A stretch of DNA of 20,000 nucleotides from an uncultured virus (IMG/VR IMGVR_UViG_3300047661_000097). Lineage: Duplodnaviria > Heunggongvirae > Uroviricota > Caudoviricetes. The first letter of the stretch is position 1. Every line of letters starts with the position of its first letter. Below are positions 3,414 through 19,877 of the stretch, piece by piece. Both the position numbers and the translations under genes were made by a program. The stretch lies in IMG/VR virus record IMGVR_UViG_3300047661_000097. One strand, written 5' to 3'. The notes under the pieces are model-generated. The model did no database searches, was not told where the DNA came from, and saw only the letters and a program-made list of their open reading frames with translations.

Positions 3414-3650
3414 TTACTTTGTCCGCCATACTCTCAGTCCCCAATCGTCGTACTCTGCCATAAACTCCTTGTTGTTTTTCAATCCGTAGCGATAAACAGA
3501 AACGCTAGAAACGGGCGGAAATCCACTGTTACCTACATTCTGGATATAAATTGAATCGTTCGGTTCCATGTGCGCCAACTCAGGCACAATTTCCTCTGCT
3601 CCCGGAGTGTCGGTTGCAAGCAAAAAATTCTTTTCGACCCGTATCGTCAT
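3414..3650 (-). CDS. Hypothetical protein
   Basis: ATGA overlap with MTase stop; C-terminal GLRVWR motif. Confidence 0.7.
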   Translation of the reverse strand: MTIRVEKNFLLATDTPGAEEIVPELAHMEPNDSIYIQNVGNSGFPPVSSVSVYRYGLKNNKEFMAEYDDWGLRVWRTK

Positions 3651-5359
3651 ACGCTCTCCATTTGGTTGAATAGCGGCGCATCAGCTTCTATCCGTAGCTG
3701 TGCAATCTTTACGTAATCAGGATTCATCTCAATACCAATAAAATTGAATCCTTCACGTATAGCCGCAATTCCTGTGCTTCCCGAGCCCATAAACAAATCA
3801 AGAACTGTGCCTTTTGGCGGCGTCACTAATCGGCAAAGATAAGCCATTAGTGCTATAGGTTTGACCGTTGGATGGAAATTCTGCGCACTGCGGTCCGTTC
3901 CATCGGACTGAAAAGTCCCCGGCGATTGCGTTCCAGCCGACCACAGCAACGGTTTCTTGTCCATCGCTTCGCATCCGCGGTTACGCTCTTCGCGGCTTGC
4001 TTTCGCACAATAAATCAAACTATGTTGAAAGTCCTTCTCCCCATGTTCCAAGTTCTTCGGCATGATGCTGAATATGGCATTTACGACAGAGCCGTTCTGT
4101 CTGGAGAGGCTGGTCGTAATCTTCGTGATGCCGGTCTGCACACGGAGCACCACACTTTGTACATGGCCGATTTTTTGGGTCAAATCTTCGGGCGGCTGCT
4201 CGAGCCAGGACTTTCTTCCTAAACTCTGGATCGTCTCTGTAACGCTTGTTGCGATCTGCCTTAATTCGTTCAGCGTTACGTTCGTAAAAGGTTCCGGGAA
4301 GACGACCTTTAAGCGCAGCTCCACGGGGAGTGCCTCGCTGACTGCATGATCGAGAACAGTAGACGCGAGTTTGCTTGGCAGGCAAGAAAAGCCGTCCACA
4401 GAATGCACAAGGTTTGAGAGACCGCTTTGCTCCAGCCATTCTCTGTCCTCCAGTGAACAGGTTTTAAAGAACCGCGCTGCAGAGCCCTTATCGAGACGGG
4501 GTTCCCAACCATAGCCATTGGTCCCAAATTTCCCGTATACATTTTGCTGGGTGCGTTGGCCATCGTCGCTGGCACGTAGCTGCCCCGGCGCATCTGGAAA
4601 TGCTGCCAACACTTCGTCGCTGCCATCATGAATAACATTAGCTGGCCAGCGACCCAATTCCGGCGTGTTATACGGTGTACTACTCTCTCCAACAAACGAT
4701 TTAGCGCCGCTGGTTCGCCCGTAATTGTGGTGTGGAAGTTCTCCAGAAATTCGGCACGCATCGATATTCAACGCACCGGTTCTATACTCCAAAACATTGG
4801 CCGCCACGGTGCCCACCAGCGGCTTGCGAGCAACAACAATCGGCTCGTGCGCCGGTTTCAACGCTGTGCCAAATCCTTGCCACTGCTGCGCGGCATCGGT
4901 CGCTGGAGCCGTAATTGGTTGCGGCGGATAATCATAGCTAACCTTTCTCGTTTCGCTATAACGTTGCGTTGCTTTTCCACGCTTATAACGCGCAGGGGCC
5001 ACAATCGCCCGTTCCACCTTTGCGGCCTTATCGATCGCTTTTGATACGTCGACCGATTTAGGAAATCCGCTGCCATAGATCCACATAATCTGATCGCGGA
5101 TCTCGAATCCCGCATCTTCAACGGCACACGCCAGCCGGTGATACGTGCGGCTTCCGCCAAAGGCCAGCAGATAACCACCAGGCTTTAACACTCGCAATGC
5201 TTGCTTCCACATCAACACGGAATAAGAAATTCCAGTTGCATCCCACTTTTTCCCCATAAAACCAAGTTCATATGGAGGATCGGTAACGATGGAATCCACC
5301 GTCGCATCGGCCAGCGTTTGCAATTGCTCCATCACATCGCCCTCCAAAATTCGGTACAT
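3647..5359 (-). CDS. DNA N6-adenine/N4-cytosine methyltransferase (beta class) with an in-frame insertion
   Basis: TDPPY near the N-terminus, HPTVKP and DLFMGSGSTG near the C-terminus; likely start MYRILEGD at 5359 (GGAG SD), ORF track start 5389. Confidence 0.92.
   Translation of the reverse strand: MYRILEGDVMEQLQTLADATVDSIVTDPPYELGFMGKKWDATGISYSVLMWKQALRVLKPGGYLLAFGGSRTYHRLACAVEDAGFEIRDQIMWIYGSGFPKSVDVSKAIDKAAKVERAIVAPARYKRGKATQRYSETRKVSYDYPPQPITAPATDAAQQWQGFGTALKPAHEPIVVARKPLVGTVAANVLEYRTGALNIDACRISGELPHHNYGRTSGAKSFVGESSTPYNTPELGRWPANVIHDGSDEVLAAFPDAPGQLRASDDGQRTQQNVYGKFGTNGYGWEPRLDKGSAARFFKTCSLEDREWLEQSGLSNLVHSVDGFSCLPSKLASTVLDHAVSEALPVELRLKVVFPEPFTNVTLNELRQIATSVTETIQSLGRKSWLEQPPEDLTQKIGHVQSVVLRVQTGITKITTSLSRQNGSVVNAIFSIMPKNLEHGEKDFQHSLIYCAKASREERNRGCEAMDKKPLLWSAGTQSPGTFQSDGTDRSAQNFHPTVKPIALMAYLCRLVTPPKGTVLDLFMGSGSTGIAAIREGFNFIGIEMNPDYVKIAQLRIEADAPLFNQMESV
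4020..4439 (-). CDS. Zn-finger/HNH endonuclease-like protein nested in the MTase gene (alternate frame)
   Basis: CAFC...YCSRSC; CTKC...DRHHEDYDQP...LCRKCHIQHH; own GGAGGA SD at 4446-4451. Confidence 0.8.
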   Translation of the reverse strand: MAGAKRSLKPCAFCGRLFLPAKQTRVYCSRSCSQRGTPRGAALKGRLPGTFYERNAERIKADRNKRYRDDPEFRKKVLARAAARRFDPKNRPCTKCGAPCADRHHEDYDQPLQTERLCRKCHIQHHAEELGTWGEGLST

Positions 5360-5372
5360 TTGCTCTCCGCCG

Positions 5373-5603
5373 TTATCTGCTAAAAGCACACTTATTTTTT
5401 CTTAAAGATGCTTGCGCCATTCTGTCTTCAGCGTCCCACCGCAATGTATCCAATTCGCAAATACGGCTTAGCGCAATATTCCGGTCGAGCAAGTGATCGT
5501 CGGCGGCCTTGGCCAACGCCCGCCGAAAGAGTTTTAGCTCTAGCGGATTCATTGAAACCTTTACCCGCACTTCCGTCATATCTTTACCTTTCTTGCGCAT
5601 CAA
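5373..5603 (-). CDS. Hypothetical protein
   Basis: Overlaps the primase stop; operon context. Confidence 0.6.
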   Translation of the reverse strand: MMRKKGKDMTEVRVKVSMNPLELKLFRRALAKAADDHLLDRNIALSRICELDTLRWDAEDRMAQASLRKNKCAFSR

Positions 5604-7303: not shown

Positions 7304-8153
7304 TGCTTCCCTCGTAGGCCCGCATGCCGTTTTTTAATCCCCAGAGCTTTGAAGACATCCATCTGCCTTCGCCAAAAAACTTTTCAGGGCTCATCGGGGG
7401 CGCGCGCAGCTTTTCCCTTTTGGCGCAATCGCAATACTCTTTCCAGGCCACAATCATGCTGTCGCGAACGCCATCGAGATCCCCAGGATGTTCCTTGAGC
7501 GCGAATTTGGCTTGCTCGAAAAGCTGGTCCCTAGCCCATCGCGTGGTGGTTCCAATCGAATCAACCACGGCAGTTGCAATCATGTGTGCCTCGTCGTTTT
7601 CCGTAGAAGAAGCCGCGCGCAGCGCAGGGAGTGGTTCTGCGATATTCCGGAGATCCTCCGGAATTCCCCCCCCTGTTCCCTGTTCCCTGTTCCCTGTTCC
7701 CTGTTCCTGACGGAAATTCTCCGGCGGCTCTCCAGAAATTTCCGGTTGTTCCCCGGAATTTTCCAGGGGATTTCCAGAACTTTTTAGAGATTTTCTGGAG
7801 ATTTCCAGAGAATTTTTCCATAAGATATTCAATTTGCTTATTTTGCTTGGCGTGGGGTGGCTGATTCTTTGATGATTTGCAAAATTTACGATGCGACCAA
7901 ATTGCTTTTCTTTGTGAATACCGATCTCGACATAGCCAATGCTCACTAATTCGTTGAGCAGTTTTTTTATGTTTTTAAAATCTTTACGCAATGGGCACGT
8001 TCCAGCTCGCACTAAAGCCGGATTTGCGTTGAAAAATCCTTCGTCATCGGCATAGCAAAGCAACGCTTCCGCTAATAAATGCGCTGATGCAGACACAGAC
8101 GAAAGCCCTTCGTTTGAATTAAACTCGGGCTTGATTGACCTTATCCTTCCCAT
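7293..8153 (-). CDS. Phage replication initiator/replisome organiser
   Basis: MGRIRSIKPEF...ADDEG N-terminus typical of phage replication proteins; internal repeat tract; directly upstream of primase-helicase. Confidence 0.75.
   Translation of the reverse strand: MGRIRSIKPEFNSNEGLSSVSASAHLLAEALLCYADDEGFFNANPALVRAGTCPLRKDFKNIKKLLNELVSIGYVEIGIHKEKQFGRIVNFANHQRISHPTPSKISKLNILWKNSLEISRKSLKSSGNPLENSGEQPEISGEPPENFRQEQGTGNREQGTGGGIPEDLRNIAEPLPALRAASSTENDEAHMIATAVVDSIGTTTRWARDQLFEQAKFALKEHPGDLDGVRDSMIVAWKEYCDCAKREKLRAPPMSPEKFFGEGRWMSSKLWGLKNGMRAYEGSNAA
7671..7820. repeat. (CCCTGTT)x5 at 7671-7705 plus ~10-11-bp-spaced TTTCCRG-like repeats: probable iteron/ori region
   Basis: Repeats seen directly; position inside the initiator gene is analogous to lambda ori in O. 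Confidence 0.6.
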
Positions 8154-8171
8154 GCAAATGCCCTTATTTCT

Positions 8172-8819
8172 TTACGCTTTTAATTTTGAGGTAGGCTTCG
8201 ATAAATGCTCGCGCTGCGGGCACACAGATTGCGTCGCCGTACAGACGAAGCCGTCCAACACGGGCGGTGGCTCCTGTGGCGAGTGGAAACTCGATAGTTC
8301 TTCGGAAGCCACCCGCTTCAAAATCCATCCAGAGGCGGTCTTGAACTTTTTCAGTAAGGGATCGCCATAGCGTTTCAACCGGGACAGATGGGTGCAACAC
8401 AAGCCCTTGCGCTCCACTGGTTTTGAGCAATAGGCGCAATGCTTCAACCGTAGCGGTGTCCCCTCGTACCTCGGCGAGTGCAAGAGACGATGGCAGGAGA
8501 CGCACAAACTCTTCAAATTCTCGGGCGCGTTGTTCATCGGATCTTTGTCTTTGTGGTGTACGTGCAATTTGCAACTTGTCTTCCCACACCGCTCGCAAGT
8601 TTTCTTTACCGCCTTGCCCGATTGCCGCCGGCTGTTTTTGGCGTTGAGCACCTTGATCGTTCCTTCGTAATCCAGTGCCATGCACTTCCGGTTGCAATAA
8701 TGTCGCTGGAGAAAACTCGTTATGTTTTCCAACACGCCGTTCATCCAGCGCTTGCGATGAAGGAGTTCGCCGCAATAACGGCAATTTTTGATCGGGTCGG
8801 ATTTGGGCTTCGGAGGCAT
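8172..8819 (-). CDS. HNH endonuclease with Zn fingers nested in the C5 MTase gene
   Basis: CRYC...YCNRKC; CERC...LHVHHKDKDPMNNAPENLKSLCVSCHRLLH; starts immediately after the beta-chain stop (TAAATG). Confidence 0.85.
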   Translation of the reverse strand: MPPKPKSDPIKNCRYCGELLHRKRWMNGVLENITSFLQRHYCNRKCMALDYEGTIKVLNAKNSRRQSGKAVKKTCERCGKTSCKLHVHHKDKDPMNNAPENLKSLCVSCHRLLHSPRYEGTPLRLKHCAYCSKPVERKGLCCTHLSRLKRYGDPLLKKFKTASGWILKRVASEELSSFHSPQEPPPVLDGFVCTATQSVCPQREHLSKPTSKLKA

Positions 8820-9350
8820 TTACTTTTTCTTTTTCCGCTTCAGCGTTGCTGCTGCCCGCATCGCAAACAGATCCCATTGGTGCGGTATGCTCATCAACCA
8901 TCCAGACATACTTGGGTTCAACTGGCCGGAATTTACCGTCCCTGCATCCGATCCAGTCAGCATCTCGCCAGAAGCCGTTAAGCGGACCGGGCCGCTGGGA
9001 CACTCCGGAATTGTCCGCGCCATCTGATCCAATCCCATTTCGTCGATCCGGTTGCCCGACCGCGAACGAAAGCTGTCTACCGCTGGTGTCGGCCAGCCCG
9101 CTAGCAGTTTCACTTGGTTCTGTAGCTGTTCGCCCTTTTTGCCGCCGCCACGCTCCGCAAAACTTTTCTGGTTGGCTGTCCGGTAATCCCGTTCGGCCGG
9201 TGTCGCCCACGCCGCCAAGTTCGCTTGGCTGTGCAGTGTATCCGGCTTGCCCCGGTGCGCTCCCGCGCATTCCGAGTCTTCCGCTTTCGGCGTCGGCCAC
9301 GAAGTAAAGTCGCTGCCGGATGTGTGGCGCGCCGACGCTGCACGCTCCAA
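8820..9350 (-). CDS. C5 MTase small (beta) chain in an alternate frame, M.EcoHK31I-like
   Basis: Repeated WPTP/WATP segments and GQLNPSMSGWLMSIP (motif IX-like), which is missing from the alpha frame. Confidence 0.7.
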   Translation of the reverse strand: MERAASARHTSGSDFTSWPTPKAEDSECAGAHRGKPDTLHSQANLAAWATPAERDYRTANQKSFAERGGGKKGEQLQNQVKLLAGWPTPAVDSFRSRSGNRIDEMGLDQMARTIPECPSGPVRLTASGEMLTGSDAGTVNSGQLNPSMSGWLMSIPHQWDLFAMRAAATLKRKKKK

Positions 9351-9817
9351 ATACGAATCTTCCCAACGGCGTACGCTTCCGCTTCCAAGTCAGATTGAAC
9401 AAGGTCGAGCCAGCCGTATCCAATCGCCGCACGCACTTGCTCTCCAAAAATGACTGCAGGGTGGCACTGGCGGATGAGTCGCATCCAATCAGGCCAGAGG
9501 TGACGAGAGTCTGCAAACCCTTGTCCTTTGCCCGCGGCGGAAAAACTTGGGCATGGGCAACTTCCTGTCCACACTGGCCGTTCGTCTGGCCATCCGGCTT
9601 GTCGCAGCGCGAGTGACCAAAATCCGCCTCCAGCGAAGAAATGCGCTTGGGTATATCCCACAAGGTCTGCTGCTCGTACTTCGGTGATACTTCTGGCATC
9701 GACATCTCCAGCCGCAATGGCACCAGCTTTAATAGCTTCTCGAATAATTTCGGCCTTAAGCGGGTCGCATTCGTTGTAATAGGCAGACACAACAATCCAA
9801 TGCTTCAATTGGCAGGG

Positions 9818-10045
9818 TTAATATACTTGGCGCTCGTCGGCGCGTTCTTTCAGCCATCTTTGTACGTCGGCTGTTAGCCACCCAATCGCATGGGTGCCTA
9901 GTTTGACGGGCTGCGGAAAGAGGCCCTCCCGCTTTCGCGTGTCGATCGTGGCGGTACAAACGCCCAGCATCTCGGCTAACTGATTTTTACGCAGTATAAA
10001 GGGAAGGCGAGCTTGTAAGATGGACTTTTTCTTTTTGCGAGCCAT
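9818..10045 (-). CDS. alpA: AlpA-family HTH regulator/excisionase
   Basis: LRKNQLAEMLGVCTATID...GLFPQPVKLGTHAIGW..ADVQRW. Confidence 0.9.
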   Translation of the reverse strand: MARKKKKSILQARLPFILRKNQLAEMLGVCTATIDTRKREGLFPQPVKLGTHAIGWLTADVQRWLKERADERQVY

Positions 10046-10149
10046 GGATTAACCCCACAGCCATTATCGTTAGTTCTATTTTTTTTGCAAGATAGGTTGG
10101 CGGTGCAAATCCGGATGACCCTCTAACTTATAAACGTCTTTATTTGTCT

Positions 10150-10206
10150 AAGTCTTAAATGATCTTAAAAGTCAAAGAGAATTAGTCTTAAATGAACTGA
10201 AAAGTC
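10150..10206. promoter_or_regulatory. Two ~24-bp direct repeats upstream of alpA, probable AlpA/RDF binding sites
   Basis: AAGTCTTAAATGATCTTAAAAGTC (10150) and TAGTCTTAAATGAACTGAAAAGTC (10183), 33-bp period. Confidence 0.55.
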
Positions 10207-10216
10207 TACTCACTTA

Positions 10217-10261
10217 GGCGGCTGCGGAGGGGGGTTATCCACAGCTATTTCCACAGCCGCC
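10217..10261 (-). terminator. Stem-loop just downstream of the integrase
   Basis: GGCGGCTGCGGA...TCCACAGCCGCC 12-bp inverted repeat with one mismatch; no good U-tract. Confidence 0.45.
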
Positions 10262-10269
10262 CTTGTGCT

Positions 10270-11505
10270 TTATGCGACGATCTTCAATCTATGATCGCCT
10301 TGCTCTCTCAACTCATCTAGGGTATCAGCCCACTGCTGCATCATAGCCGTCCTATCTTCTAAATACAAGGCAAAGTTATAAGCCGCAGAAACCTTATCTT
10401 GCTTAACATGCGCCAGCTGCAATTCGATCTGTTCATGGTCAAAACCATGCTCGTGCAACCATGTCGACGCGATCGAGCGCCAGCCGTGGCCGGTCATGCG
10501 CCCCTTATACCCCATACAGTAGAGCGCATTCAAAACCGTGCTGTGGCACAGCGTTCCATTACCATGATGAGAGGCTTCAGGAAAAAGTCGGCCACTCTCG
10601 CCTGTTAGTTCATAAAGGCGCTTCAGCAACGCAACGGTCTGTGTAGCCAGCGGCACAATATGCGGCCGATTCATCTTCATGCGTTCGGGCGGAATGCGCC
10701 ATTGCTTTTGTTCCCAATCAATCTCCGACCAAAGGCCGCCGATTAATTCGCTTGTACGCACAAAGGTTAGGCTCAGTAGTTCCATGGCAATCCGCGTCAG
10801 CGCGTTGCCGTTGTAATCCCGCATATCGCAAAGCAATGCGGGAATCTCGGCAATCGGCAAATGCGCAAAGTGCTTCACCGTAGCTTTGCTTAAAATGCGA
10901 TCCGGCCGAATGCCGGCGGCGGGGTTCATTGGGATCAATCCGCGGTCGCAACCAAACTCATAAATTTGATTAATCGTTTGCAGCATACGACGGGCAACAT
11001 CGCGCGCGCCGTGCGCATCAATAGATTGGATTAATGCCACCAGTTCGATGCGGCTAATTTTCATCGGCGGCTTTTTACCAATAACCCCTAATACGTAGTT
11101 CATAAGCCGCGCTTCCATTTGCGTTGCATAACGAGGTGCCCTGTTGGCGTTCCACCAGTCAAGCCATTGCCGCGCCAGCCACTCAAACGTAAATAATGCC
11201 GTTTTTTTCTCTTCTACCAGTTTTATTTTCTGCTGTTCCTTTGTCTCTTTCCGCACGGCCATGGGATCAGTACCTTGCGCTAAAAGCAAACGAACATCTG
11301 CATGCCGCTTTCTTGCTTCCAACAGCGAAACGTCAGGGAATTTCCCTAAAGCCATCTGTTTCTGTTTGCCGTCAAACCAATACTTCCAACGCCACAGTTT
11401 GCCGCCGGCGGGCATTACTAGCAGATGCAAGCCCTGGCGATCAGGAATACGATACGGTTTCGTACGTGGCTTTGCTTTTTCGCATTTTAAATTTGTAAGT
11501 TCCAT
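10270..11505 (-). CDS. int: P4-like (IntA/IntS family) tyrosine integrase
   Basis: N-terminal arm-binding domain; catalytic R (FVRTSE), K, HGWR, LAH and Y (AAYNF) intact. Confidence 0.95.
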   Translation of the reverse strand: MELTNLKCEKAKPRTKPYRIPDRQGLHLLVMPAGGKLWRWKYWFDGKQKQMALGKFPDVSLLEARKRHADVRLLLAQGTDPMAVRKETKEQQKIKLVEEKKTALFTFEWLARQWLDWWNANRAPRYATQMEARLMNYVLGVIGKKPPMKISRIELVALIQSIDAHGARDVARRMLQTINQIYEFGCDRGLIPMNPAAGIRPDRILSKATVKHFAHLPIAEIPALLCDMRDYNGNALTRIAMELLSLTFVRTSELIGGLWSEIDWEQKQWRIPPERMKMNRPHIVPLATQTVALLKRLYELTGESGRLFPEASHHGNGTLCHSTVLNALYCMGYKGRMTGHGWRSIASTWLHEHGFDHEQIELQLAHVKQDKVSAAYNFALYLEDRTAMMQQWADTLDELREQGDHRLKIVA

Positions 11506-11523: not shown

Positions 11524-12051
11524 TTAAGTGCTGCGTAAATTTGATGGTTTGCCAAACTCGTAAATTCGTTGAATCATCTGCAAATCCAGTTGGTCAGCTG
11601 AATTCGCTAAAAGCGGAGAATCCGTTGTGCTATTAAAGATTTCTGGAAAGCGCAAAGCAATTTCATTAAGCCACCACGCAAACCAGAGTTTTGCGCATCT
11701 GCTAAATAATTGCTTTCGCACCTGCGTGGCATTCTGTTGTAGCGCTATTGTTTTTCGTTGTAGCGCCGTCGTCTTTCGTTGTCGCTTTATTTGCTTCCGC
11801 GTTGCCATCGGATCGGTTCCGGCAGCAAGTTCCGCACGTGCTTTTGCATGCAGCGCTCGGGCCTGTAGTAATGAAACCTTAGGGTATTTTCCGAACGCCA
11901 TTTGTTTTTGCTTGCCGTCAAACCAATACTTCCAGCGCCACAATCTGCTGCCACGTGGAGTAACCAGTAAATGCAGACCGTTCCCATCAGACAGACGGTA
12001 AGGTCGCGCCGCTGGGCAAGCATTTTCGCATTTCAGATCAGTTAATTTCAT
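11524..12051 (-). CDS. Integrase arm-DNA-binding domain protein lacking the catalytic domain
   Basis: First ~85 aa closely parallel the integrase N-terminus (LWRWKYWFDGKQKQMA identical); no catalytic motifs. Confidence 0.85.
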   Translation of the reverse strand: MKLTDLKCENACPAARPYRLSDGNGLHLLVTPRGSRLWRWKYWFDGKQKQMAFGKYPKVSLLQARALHAKARAELAAGTDPMATRKQIKRQRKTTALQRKTIALQQNATQVRKQLFSRCAKLWFAWWLNEIALRFPEIFNSTTDSPLLANSADQLDLQMIQRIYEFGKPSNLRST

Positions 12052-12075
12052 TTCTTTTCAATTTGTGTTCTGCAG

Positions 12076-13166
12076 GTTGCATCTGTCCGATGCACTGCTA
12101 CTTTGTTGCTACTCCATTGCTTGCCGTTAACAATTGCTGTAAAGAGTTGCATCTGTCCGATGCACTACATGCTCGTCGCAACAACCAGCCGTATGTTTCT
12201 TCGTCGATGTTAGTTTGTTGCATCTGTTCGATGCACTCAAAATCTGTTGTTACCCCTCCAGATTCCAATTGCCTGATCCTCTGCTGTTGCATCTATCCGA
12301 TGCACTACAAACTTTGTTACTAATCGCCGCCCTGGCACTGGGCGTGTAAGCGGAGTTGTTGCATCTGCTCGATGCACTCAAAATCTGTGGCTACTTTGAT
12401 CGCCTAAACTCATGACTCACACTACCGAGTTGCATCTGTCCGATGCACTACAACTTCTTTGCTGCCCTGCGGTATGCGACTATTCGCTGAGCACTTCGAT
12501 TGTTGCATCTATTCGATGCACTACAGCTCCATTGCTACCCCATTGCTTGCGGTTGTCGCTTGCCGTTGCCAATAGTTGCATCTGTCCGATGCACTACAAC
12601 TTCTTTGCAACGACAACTGTTGTTGTTCACAACGTGGACACTGGTGTGTTGCATCTGTTCGATGCACTACAACTTCGTTGCAACTTGCGTTGGGAGTAGT
12701 CAATTCCTGCATAGTCCAAGTTGCATCTGTCCGATGCACTACAAATTCGTTGCAACGACTAACTGCGGAAAACGCGTCATGAGGCGTAGTTGCATCTGCT
12801 CGATGCACTGCACGCTCGTCGCAACTGCAAGGGACCGGGGCTACTTGCCCAGGTTGACACGTTGCATCTGTTCGATGCACTGCAAATTCGTTGCTGCAGC
12901 GGCCTATCATAGGAGGACGTTGCATCTATTCGATGCACAACAACTTCGCTGCAACGCTTCACATCGCCGAATACGTTTATGCCGGACGGTTGCATCTATT
13001 CGATGCACTACAACTTCGTTGCAGCGAATTCAACAAATTGTTCGCACTGGAGAAACTCGGTTGCATCTATTCGATGCACTGTACGTTTGTCGCAACGCCA
13101 GCAGCCATGTATATTTTTGCAGCTGATCAGTTACATCTGTTCGATGTACTGCACGATTTGGCAAAG
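12076..13166. CRISPR. CRISPR-like array 1: 16 degenerate 37-bp repeats, 15 spacers (32-36 bp, one of 21 bp)
   Basis: Repeats start at 12076, 12146, 12217, 12286, 12358, 12429, 12502, 12575, 12648, 12720, 12789, 12861, 12919, 12989, 13060, 13130; consensus GTTGCATCTRYYCGATGCACTACAACTTCGTTGCWAC. Confidence 0.93.
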
Positions 13167-13211
13167 AACGTTGAGGCATTGCGGCCGCCCCATGCCCGTA
13201 TGGACACTTTT

Positions 13212-13242
13212 ATTATACCTAAAAAATGCCCCAAAAAAACAA
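13212..13242 (-). promoter_or_regulatory. Possible sigma70 promoter reading into array 1 and the integrase genes
   Basis: Perfect TATAAT on the minus strand at 13212-13217; weak TTGTTT -35 with 19-bp spacing. Confidence 0.45.
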
Positions 13243-13560
13243 TTTGTTTGTTGCATTCCGAAAAAGCCATGGGAAAAATGTGTCACAAATATAGCACCAA
13301 AATTGCCCCCCTTGTAGAAAAATGTCTTTACGTCTCCAGGTCGAGGTTGAACAGGTAAAAGGGGGGCATATTTCCATTAAGTCCTTTATTTGTAATGAAA
13401 GAAAGGCATGGAATTGGTCGAGAAAGGTCAAGAAAAGTTTTGAATTGGAGTGGGTGAAAACATGGAATTGGCTCCTGAACGAGGATAGATTTCATTTTTG
13501 TTTTCAATAGCTTACAACGACAAAAATCAAATATAGCACCAAATATGGCACCAAAGACAC
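13220..13560. other. Probable attP region
   Basis: AT-rich; direct repeats AAATATRGCACCAAA at 13287, 13529, 13541 (arm-type-like); IHF-like TTTCAATAGCTTA near 13502; upstream of int. Confidence 0.55.
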
Positions 13561-13589
13561 AAATGGCCGATCAATGGTTCGATCGGCCA
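13553..13589 (-). terminator. Intrinsic terminator downstream of array 2 on the minus strand
   Basis: TGGCCGATC-N8-GATCGGCCA (13564-13589) followed on the minus strand by TTTGTGTCTTT. Confidence 0.6.
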
Positions 13590-13613
13590 CAAAATCTAAC
13601 TACTTGCTGCAGT

Positions 13614-14042
13614 GTTGCATCTGTACGATGCACTCTCGGGACGTTCAACGTAGTTGCATCTGCTCGATGCACTCTTGCAGTTTTCCGAGGTTGCATCTGC
13701 TCGATGCACTTCATGCTCGTCACAACGGTCGATACAGGCGGCTTTGTTGCAGACATGCGCCAAGTTGCATCTGTGCGGTGCACTCTCGGGCCGTTGCCAA
13801 TAGTTGCATCTGTCCGATGCACTCAAAGCCCGTCGCTACTTCAAAGACGTCTGTTGCAATTGAGTCGTCCTCGTTGCACCTGCTCGATGCACTGCACGCT
13901 CGTTGCAACGGCGCTTATCGTTACTAAAGCGGAGAAATGATCTGCGTTGCATCTGTTTGATGCACTAAAAACTCGTTGCTACACGAAGGATTTGTCCGAT
14001 TAACAGCAAGTGCTCTGTGTTGCATCTGCTCGATGCACTGCA
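13614..14042. CRISPR. CRISPR-like array 2: 8 repeats of the same family, three collapsed units
   Basis: Repeats at 13614, 13653, 13690, 13764, 13803, 13873, 13946, 14019 (last truncated). Confidence 0.88.
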
Positions 14043-14112
14043 TTGCGCTTTCTTCTTAATCACAAAAATAAATTTAGAAAAAAGCGCAACACACTGGTTG
14101 TCTTTACAACGA

Positions 14113-17828: not shown

Positions 17829-18902
17829 CTAATTTGTTCCAATATGCGACTTCGTTTTGGCTTGAGCATGCGCACGTCTGCTGGTAAGTGCCGGCATTAC
17901 ACCACCACCAAGGTTTAGCTTTTGTCGCAGTTCGGTTTCAAGTTTAATAAAGATTTCGCTGTTTGATTTTAAAAACTCACGCGCGTTTTCTCGCCCTTGT
18001 CCGATACGCTCGCCGGCAAAGCAATACCACGCTCCAGATTTTTCAACAAGTCCGTTTAGAGCCGCTACATCAAGCACGTCGCCCTCGCGACTGACTCCTT
18101 CGCCATACAGAATGTCGAATTCCGCTTCACGAAAAGGAGCAGCGACTTTGTTCTTCGCTACCTTTGCCCTGGTCCGATTGCCGATTGCGGCTTCGTTAAA
18201 CTTTACGGGGCCAATACGTCTTATATCAATGCGTATCGAAGCATAAAACTTCAAGGCATATCCGCCGCTAGTAATCTCTGGATTGCCGTACCCCTGGTTA
18301 ATTTTTAGTCTGATCTGGTTGATAAAAATCAGCACGGTAGGCGATTTTTTTAAAACGCCGGAAAGTTTGCGCATTGCTTGCGACATCAGACGAGCTTGTA
18401 ACCCTACGTGCGCATCGCCCATTTCTCCATCTAGTTCGGCTTGCGGCACCAAGGCAGCGACAGAATCGACAACAAGCACGCTAATCGCGCCAGTCGAAAC
18501 CAGCTTATCGGTAATCTCCAAAGCTTCTTCACCAGAGTTCGGCTGCGAAACCAAAAGATTGTCTATGTCAACTCCCAGTTTCTTGGCATAACCGGGATCA
18601 AGTGCATGCTCGGCATCAACAAACGCAGCCAAGCCGCCTTCCCGTTGCGCTTGAGCAATGATTTGTAGCGCAATGGTAGTTTTCCCTGAAGATTCTGGGC
18701 CAAAGATTTCCGTAATGCGGCCGCGCGGCACGCCGCCTACACCCAACGCCATATCAAGGCTAACAGAGCCCGTCGACACCACATCGATTGGCATCAATGC
18801 TTCCTTCGAACCTAGTCGAATAATAGAACCTTTGCCAAATTTCTTTTCAATTAACGCCAGCGCTTGCTCAATACTTTTGGTTTGGTCTTCGGTATTAGTC
18901 AT
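17829..18902 (-). CDS. recA: Recombinase RecA (phage-encoded)
   Basis: [32 protein letters not shown]; full length; likely start MTNTED at 18902 (ORF track 18917). Confidence 0.97.
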
Positions 18903-18918
18903 CGGGCGTTCCCCCACC

Positions 18919-19276: not shown

Positions 19277-19306
19277 TTCGTCTGCAATATAGACGAAGTG
19301 TATTTT

Positions 19307-19841
19307 GTTGCATCTATTCGATGCACTACAATTTCGTTGCTGCCAGTCCGCACTTGCTTTCGGCCAGAGATCATCTCGTTGCATCTGTTCGATGCACTAT
19401 AACTTCGTTGAAGCTTGAAAAAGAGCGGAACATCTTTGCACAAACGATGTTGCATCTGCTCGATGCACTGCAACTTCGTTGCTAACTACCCTCTACCGCA
19501 AGTCAGGCTGATGTTCACCGGTTGCATCTATTCGATGCACTCCAACTTCGTTGCAGCGCGGCGGAGAAGCGGCAGAACTATCTTCTGATGCAGGTTGCAT
19601 CTATTCGATGCACTGCAAATTCGTTGATACAATCGTTATCTGGAACCGTGGTACTGGTTCTTCAGTTGCATCTGCTCGATGCACTCCAAACCCGTTGCTA
19701 CATAAATTCCATCCCTTACATCACCCCCCAAGATGTTGCATCTGTTCGATGCACTACAACTTCGTTGCTACCCTGATAAAAAAACTAAAAAGACACGCGC
19801 TATAGTTGCATCTGTTCGATGTACTACAAATTTGTTGCTAC
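19307..19841. CRISPR. CRISPR-like array 3: 8 repeats, 7 spacers (33-36 bp)
   Basis: Repeats at 19307, 19378, 19449, 19521, 19594, 19665, 19735, 19805. Confidence 0.92.
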
Positions 19842-19877
19842 CGCGGTCTTTGCGGCACTGACCCCTTTTAAAGGGGA

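Follow-up and report, generated by a model that had tools for sequence, protein, structure and literature searches.

How can an HNH endonuclease gene lie inside a conserved methylase gene of a phage, in another reading frame, without leaving a stop codon in the frame of its host? The locus was found in the window, i.e., the whole stretch of 20,000 nucleotides analysed here, which forms the final 20 kb of a single contig of 76,216 bases with phage-like ORFs. Near-identical DNA is present in metagenome runs from peat and permafrost; the RNA runs X15-X20 contain only 5-13% of the words. The gene order on the minus strand is integrase, AlpA, C5 methylase, a 286-aa ORF, primase-helicase, and N6/N4 methylase. 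Three frames are nested at the C5 methylase: the host frame (alpha), beta, and HNH, the latter two both being in frame +1 of alpha. The features are as follows.

9357..9790, minus strand: N-terminal part of the C5 methyltransferase alpha (motifs I-VII: FFAGGG, TGSCPC, GEQV), with a likely GTG start at 9790
9356..9357, minus strand: one extra base (T) compared with KIVLGA of L001, by which alpha changes frame immediately ahead of motif VIII; copies of the phage differ in it
8164..9355, minus strand: C-terminal frame of alpha with motif VIII (HIRQR), a linker over beta, the read-through of the HNH insert, and motif X (by translation; phrog_363, E=9e-18)
8820..9350, minus strand: beta chain, 176 aa, TTG start, nested in alpha in frame +1 (phrog_31772, E=1e-25; phrog_1008)
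8872..8907, minus strand: upstream copy of a dual-coding segment, beta reading kept and alpha reading lost (profile scores: beta +8, alpha -23)
8817..8834, minus strand: junction of the beta stop and the HNH start (AAAAAGAAAAAGTAA-ATG), likely a site of translational coupling
8172..8819, minus strand: HNH endonuclease ORF, 215 aa, in frame +1 of alpha (PHROG HNH, E=1.4e-7)
8254..8289, minus strand: downstream copy of the dual-coding segment (FPLATGATARVG), alpha reading kept and beta reading lost (profile scores: alpha +37, beta -25)
8227..8262, minus strand: motif X of alpha (RVGRLRLYGDAI), in the same frame as DGKFRPVEP and FPLA

The N-terminal part of alpha matches Pfam DNA_methylase (E=8e-9) and phrog_363 (E=9e-44) and has viral relatives of up to 80% identity. 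Past the frameshift, its frame continues to a stop codon at 9110. Intact full-length alpha homologs with the same insert exist (e.g., P0030 and P0034-P0037). As for beta, both of the matched families are annotated as DNA methyltransferase. The chain contains WPTP/WATP repeats, a motif-IX-like GQLNPSMSGWLMSIP, and a Lys-rich tail at its end, and it resembles the RLTP..RLQGFP of single-chain hosts. Its frame is open in 58 of 58 insert-free segments, and no match was found for it among PDB sequences. The alpha and beta segments are numbered here by the C5 motif scheme (I-VII, VIII, IX, and X). The alpha N-terminus is also open in frame +1 over 148 codons, as in three of 80 relatives, and a false 543-aa protein is therefore reported by ORF callers. 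A promoter and terminator scan of 8100-10300 gave nothing above shuffles.

The first-pass annotation had noticed about 208 codons between DGKFRPVEP and FPLA, elements said to be normally near-adjacent. Both statements are borne out. A single minus-strand frame contains DGKFRPVEP (8940-8914), FPLA (8289-8278), and RVGRLRLYGDAI (8262-8227), and the gap from PVEP to FPLA is 208 codons. Measured from DGKxRP to RLxxYG, the span is 229 codons in the window. It was measurable in 64 of the 80 viral relatives closest to the alpha N-terminus, with 23-24 codons in 63 of them and 51 in the remaining one (L001). The HNH family of the insert is absent from all 80 relatives.

What is the insert? A 215-aa HNH starting right after the beta stop had been proposed. 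The position of the start holds, since the ATG directly follows the beta TAA (8822-8820), but only about the first 170 codons of the ORF are HNH; the last ~40 (about residues 171-215) are a run-on over the host motif X. In the AlphaFold model, confidence is high to about residue 170 and pLDDT is ~50 for residues 171-215. Among 28 homologs, most are 157-180 aa in length. A comparison with L082, which retains 233 bases of the insert end plus motif X at 92% identity to the window, divides the ORF similarly. In the insert, six of six changes are silent for HNH. From 8284 to 8203, eight of nine changes are silent in alpha and all nine alter the HNH frame; thus, the ORF continues past the end of the HNH for its last ~40 codons. 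In the related phage L082/L083 (2502-2734), this 3′ end of the HNH insert with motif X lies directly behind the AlpA gene and the remaining methylase is deleted.

The HNH ORF has an N-terminal Cys cluster, an HNH core (H88, N96, N101, C106, C109, H110, and H114), and a C-terminal CxxC/CxxH. Its Pfam HNH matches score just below the gathering cut-off, and 16 of the 28 homologs carry a Pfam HNH label. Eight residues (H88, H89, N96, N101, C106, C109, H110, and H114) are invariant in 27 aligned rows. A Foldseek search with the model gave no PDB match at E<=0.001, and four-base palindrome counts revealed no target site (observed/expected 0.81-1.14). The protein is likely a homing endonuclease, judging from its site, its distribution, and the invariant H88, N96, N101, and H110. 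In each of 17 two-frame loci, the beta stop is followed after 0-2 codons by the first HNH Met, and the upstream sequence is purine-rich. It is likely that the HNH start is coupled translationally to the beta stop.

Is the open host frame a matter of chance? The frame had been described as stop-free over the HNH gene, and it contains no stop codon in the window. Synonymous shuffles of the window HNH expect 15.5 stops with the codon usage of the genome or 7.9 with its own codons, and none of 4000 shuffles was free of stops under either scheme. Thus, the stop-codon depletion that the first-pass annotation proposed to measure is real. The third frame has 10 stops versus 10.4 expected. Scans with an HNH alignment gave 160 loci, 159 with a profile match and 38 scoring above 100 bits, a cut chosen post hoc from the gap between 103 and 62 bits. 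Since these loci were found by HNH likeness, the search itself did not select for an open frame. The host frame is open in all 38 loci above the cut and, over short stretches, in 21 of 121 weaker, core-only matches. For 33 non-redundant members (of 39 sequences, window included; <80% identity, median 41%), the host frame has no stop versus 195 expected, while the other frame has 218 versus 207. In these 33 members, the third codon position before AA, AG, or GA is T in 0 and C in 511 cases; elsewhere it is T in 868 and C in 936. With loci added later, the host frame is open in 65 of 65 (duplicates and the window included), the other frame in none, and a motif-X pattern follows downstream in 64. 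Shorter members lacking the N- or C-terminal Cys cluster also keep the host frame open (L248, L261, L266, L273, L276-L279, L245, L190, L087, and L194). These results showed that stop codons are avoided throughout the family by synonymous choice, with C and never T before AA, AG, or GA. A chance origin is ruled out by the window shuffles together with the family counts.

It was also considered that motif X is translated separately from a start within the insert. Host-frame ATGs exist at 8901, 8877, and 8328, and functional split C5 methylases are described in PMC2836561. However, the ATG nearest to motif X (8328) has no purine-rich leader. Moreover, all 23 C-ending at-risk codons of the window HNH are distributed across HNH codons 5-172, and stop avoidance therefore extends over the whole insert. 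A separate motif X, like a chance open frame, is extremely unlikely.

Which genes are the hosts? The open host frames of the family read as C5 methylases. By pattern, 34 of the 65 loci are flagged as two-frame, and the rest are mostly single-chain enzymes. In the single-chain hosts, the HNH gene immediately precedes motif IX, except in L191-L193, where it lies between IX and X. Thus, neither the position nor the host type is uniform: the family occurs in single-chain and in two-frame (M.EcoHK31I-like) hosts, always near motifs IX/X. Among the 33 other two-frame loci, 26 have an alpha intact from the N-terminal motifs to motif X, six have no N-terminus on the DNA analysed, and one is the twin of the window. 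Two cultured phages are included in the family. Komagataeibacter phage phiKX1 (LC644975.1) combines beta and a short HNH with an intact alpha, the frame of which is open over 549 codons; its annotation contains beta and a small fragment, and neither the full alpha nor the HNH. In Staphylococcus phage CUB-EPI_14, gp45 is of the single-chain type; the methylase is annotated there and the HNH is not.

The most probable explanation, to which I assign a probability of about 80%, is that a two-frame C5 methyltransferase gene received a likely homing HNH gene between its motifs IX and X, and that alpha has been kept stop-free and is translated through the insert without splicing. According to this scheme, a free-standing HNH gene would enter the phage methylase gene, stop codons would be kept out of alpha, and the HNH DNA would be read as a loop of ~200 residues up to motif X. 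The HNH protein itself would be produced through the coupling to the beta stop. It would nick or cut insert-free alleles at the motif IX/X sequence, and repair would copy the insert in. Splitting of the site into two diverged copies may make an invaded allele immune, and the alpha/beta enzyme presumably stays active despite the loop. The first-pass annotation had instead proposed that the endonuclease is overprinted on the methylase frame. This direction should be reversed: an existing HNH gene would have been inserted and the host frame kept open across it.

If the insert were an unrecognised self-splicing intron or intein, it would be removed from the RNA or the protein. Phage HNHs are often carried by group I introns, and duplicated-looking ends are considered a possible sign of an intron, according to PMC11855218. 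However, profile searches gave no Rfam match anywhere in the window, and the 543-aa host-frame ORF matched no Pfam family and therefore shows no intein domain. In addition, the insert consists almost entirely of HNH coding sequence and the beta tail. An insert spliced out of the RNA would not need the absence of stops observed across the family. Self-splicing is thus very unlikely, and translation through the insert is preferred.

How did the insertion affect the overlapping genes? In insert-free genes, a single stretch encodes FPLAHGAPARVG of alpha and SRWLMGLPPEWD of beta simultaneously. In two-frame carriers, this dual-coding motif-IX segment is present twice, as in the two copies listed above. 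All 16 loci score higher for beta in the upstream copy, and 13 of the 16 score higher for alpha in the downstream copy; in the three exceptions, the register is shifted by extra residues. The downstream copy of L248 still matches the insert-free consensus at 33 of 36 bases. The duplication may be a target-site duplication, or the end of beta may have been carried in by the element.

The copy in the window has a further peculiarity: the extra T puts motifs I-VII in one frame and motifs VIII to X in another. The extra T is present in L081, which is 100% identical to the window, and in contigs of the runs X1 and X4. It is absent from contig 13 of the run X12, which has no other difference over 9225-9900. 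The frameshifted allele was thus found in two of the three runs covering the site; no contig of X14 extends over it. The X12 contig belongs to a chain of overlapping contigs of similar depth that carries the HNH insert with one substitution; the intact X12 state is accordingly assembled from three overlapping contigs, not from a single one. Alpha is continuous from motif I to motif X in the X12 allele and in 26 relatives, and it is broken in the window allele. Since the X12 allele is otherwise identical, the break is likely recent. Broken alpha alleles were found among the relatives too (L008, L022, and L050). An assembly error is an unlikely cause, as the extra T is shared by L081, X1, and X4, although these possibly come from the source of the window. 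Programmed frameshifting was also set aside; no slippery run was seen and an intact allele exists. It is likely that the recent frameshift inactivates alpha of the window, with beta and HNH staying readable, and that the open frame downstream of the break reflects selection up to the break. One may speculate that the TTG at 9366, which is in the motif VIII-X frame and has GGAAG nine bases upstream, allows a restart. Because alpha is frameshifted upstream in the window, the read-through noted by the first-pass annotation would lead to a working enzyme only in the intact allele and the relatives.

Is the HNH gene mobile? A host tree of the N-terminal domain was made with 13 carriers and 26 insert-free rows (<82% identity, chosen from 57). 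It is a short tree from a quick search, with 136 columns and 39 rows, and half of its inner branches are open. The carrier label needs 10 changes on this tree versus 11.0 when shuffled, and a single carrier clade is rejected (p-AU 0.0009). The carriers are scattered across the host tree, matching the prediction for homing. Recombination inside the methylases could also be a cause of the scatter. The nearest row to the window is L001, which has decoupled segments and no HNH. This closest relative has 28 extra codons after DGKFRP, forming a separate beta end before the alpha motif X. Loss of the HNH gene by deletion would give this state; so would a precursor.

The HNH could instead be domesticated, i.e., the methylase and the nuclease would be a co-inherited pair (restriction-modification-like or directed against competitors), and the loop would be a functional part of alpha. 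The HNH family has been found only within C5 methylase-like frames, which would fit such a pair. Near the insert end, next to motif X, all 13 two-frame loci that have the motif (of 16 in total) share a host-frame Trp, and all 13 share a host-frame Ser, which would fit a functional loop. Both residues depend on a T in the third position of HNH codons, for which the background frequency is 0.44, and the same host-frame positions are variable in single-chain hosts. The two residues hint at a selected element of the loop, with relatedness only partly removed from the comparison. A count of Trp in 40 of 41 rows of the alignment A3 was set aside as biased, its rows having been found with a host-frame query; therefore, only the Trp count from the HNH-found loci was used. 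On the other hand, the column-averaged excess conservation of the host-frame loop (+0.13 to +0.17) does not exceed that of a non-overlapped control (+0.10 to +0.24). The scatter of carriers, the insertion at more than one position in single-chain and two-frame hosts alike, and the presence of the HNH beside a frameshifted alpha in the window phage also argue against domestication, which is unlikely.

A bolder form of the homing explanation is only tentative and rather doubtful. A homing HNH family specialised in C5 methylases may have both separated an overlapping gene pair and created a selected alpha element, the fixed W-x-S by motif X, overprinted on the nuclease gene. If this is true, the insert is a route to separately encoded chains of two-frame methylases, at which L001 and L261 hint: the former has segments that are still decoupled with the HNH gone, while the latter has motif X joined to beta. 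In L261 (IMGVR_UViG_3300036806_000090, ~270-1770), the frame of beta extends over the read-through loop and motif X, and alpha ends after DGKARPVEP, with a frameshift near the end of beta. This arrangement is either a different split of the enzyme or an assembly error.

Is the arrangement already known? A hidden HNH within a methylase frame is in print for gp65 of mycobacteriophage ShiLan. Its layout is described by computation only in the report of Arsenault, Gosselin, and Gogarten (2025, PMC11855218), and the patchy spread of the element is described in that of Gosselin et al. (2023, PMC9957025). As far as described in PMC11855218, the two systems agree in several respects: homologs have no such insert, the insert is ~200 codons long and contains no stop in the host frame, its HNH is encoded in a different sense frame and is flanked by zinc-finger-like Cys clusters, marks of introns or inteins are missing, the distribution is patchy, and the end of the insert resembles the flank. 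In contrast, ShiLan gp65 has a DPPY motif (amino-methylase type) with the HNH in frame +2 of the host, while the hosts here are C5 methylases and the frame is +1. The start also differs: the ATG here would be coupled to the beta stop, and a leaderless GTG is proposed for ShiLan in PMC11855218. Against the family profile, the ShiLan HNH scores 20.7 bits (core only) and the window HNH 261, and ShiLan is not among 14 tblastn matches. The C5-hosted HNH is thus of the ShiLan type in kind, and not the ShiLan element, as HNH family, host class, and frame are all different.

The window itself contains a second candidate. The N6/N4-type methylase (3647-5389, minus strand) has a nested 139-aa HNH-like ORF (4439-4020) in frame +2, which is the frame of ShiLan. 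This methylase shares motifs with ShiLan gp65, and its insert is at another site. For genome codons, a stop-free host frame has a probability of 0.025; for the codons of this HNH itself, the probability is 0.60. The first-pass annotation regarded the two HNHs of the window as independent. This view was confirmed by their core-only likeness (BLASTP 21 bits; 5 bits for the other HNH against the family profile), their different frames, and the different classes of their methylases. It had also suggested from the two cases a general strategy in phage methylases. Here the open host frame is a rule throughout the C5-hosted family, and the N6-type case is weak alone.

The two-frame host has its own precedent. 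According to the passages of PMC2836561 on M.EcoHK31I, its beta contains motif IX and lies in another frame wholly inside alpha (motifs I-VIII and X). The likeness is to this described layout, i.e., motif IX in an alternate-frame ORF inside alpha. Those passages describe no HNH insert for M.EcoHK31I. The TRD is placed in alpha in that paper, while beta here also has WPTP repeats. These repeats likely act in target recognition. Homing endonucleases out of frame or antisense within phage inteins are described in another report (bioRxiv 10.1101/2025.01.02.630785). There, too, the host frame is open through the insert and a different frame encodes the endonuclease. As described there, the intein inserts have splicing domains, while none was detected in the C5 insert.

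No paper on the C5-methylase HNH family was found in the literature searched, the coverage of which leaves out most subscription journals. Free-standing homing endonucleases also split phage genes, as in Aeh1 nrdA/mobE, where an intron-less HNH lies inside a coding gene. That host gene is cut into two proteins, while the host frame here is continuous. New here are a distinct HNH family, the C5 hosts, frame +1, and the three-gene overlap; the principle has been published. The ShiLan observation of 2025 is extended to C5 methylases, another frame, and a three-gene overlap. With strong statistics at the family level, the locus shows how a homing nuclease could reside in a conserved gene without splicing. 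As the annotations of phiKX1 and CUB-EPI_14 exemplify, such genes are missed. These two cultured phages make loop translation, enzyme activity, and HNH homing directly testable.

The window has other features outside the methylase genes. CRISPR-like arrays exist at 12075-14058 and 19306-19870, and at 32930-34043 of the genome C1; no Rfam match was found for the arrays in the window. The repeat (GTTGCATCTGTTCGATGCACTACAACTTCGTTGCAAC-like, ~36 nt) is present in 32 copies at a spacing of ~70-73 nt with degenerate 3′ halves, and its core has 35 matches in seven clusters genome-wide. A 175-aa ORF with an arm-binding domain only (11524-12051, minus strand) directly precedes a full tyrosine integrase (10270-11505, minus strand) with a similar N-terminus. 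A full cellular-type recA (17829-18917, minus strand; Pfam E=3e-127) adjoins ERF and PD-(D/E)XK genes.
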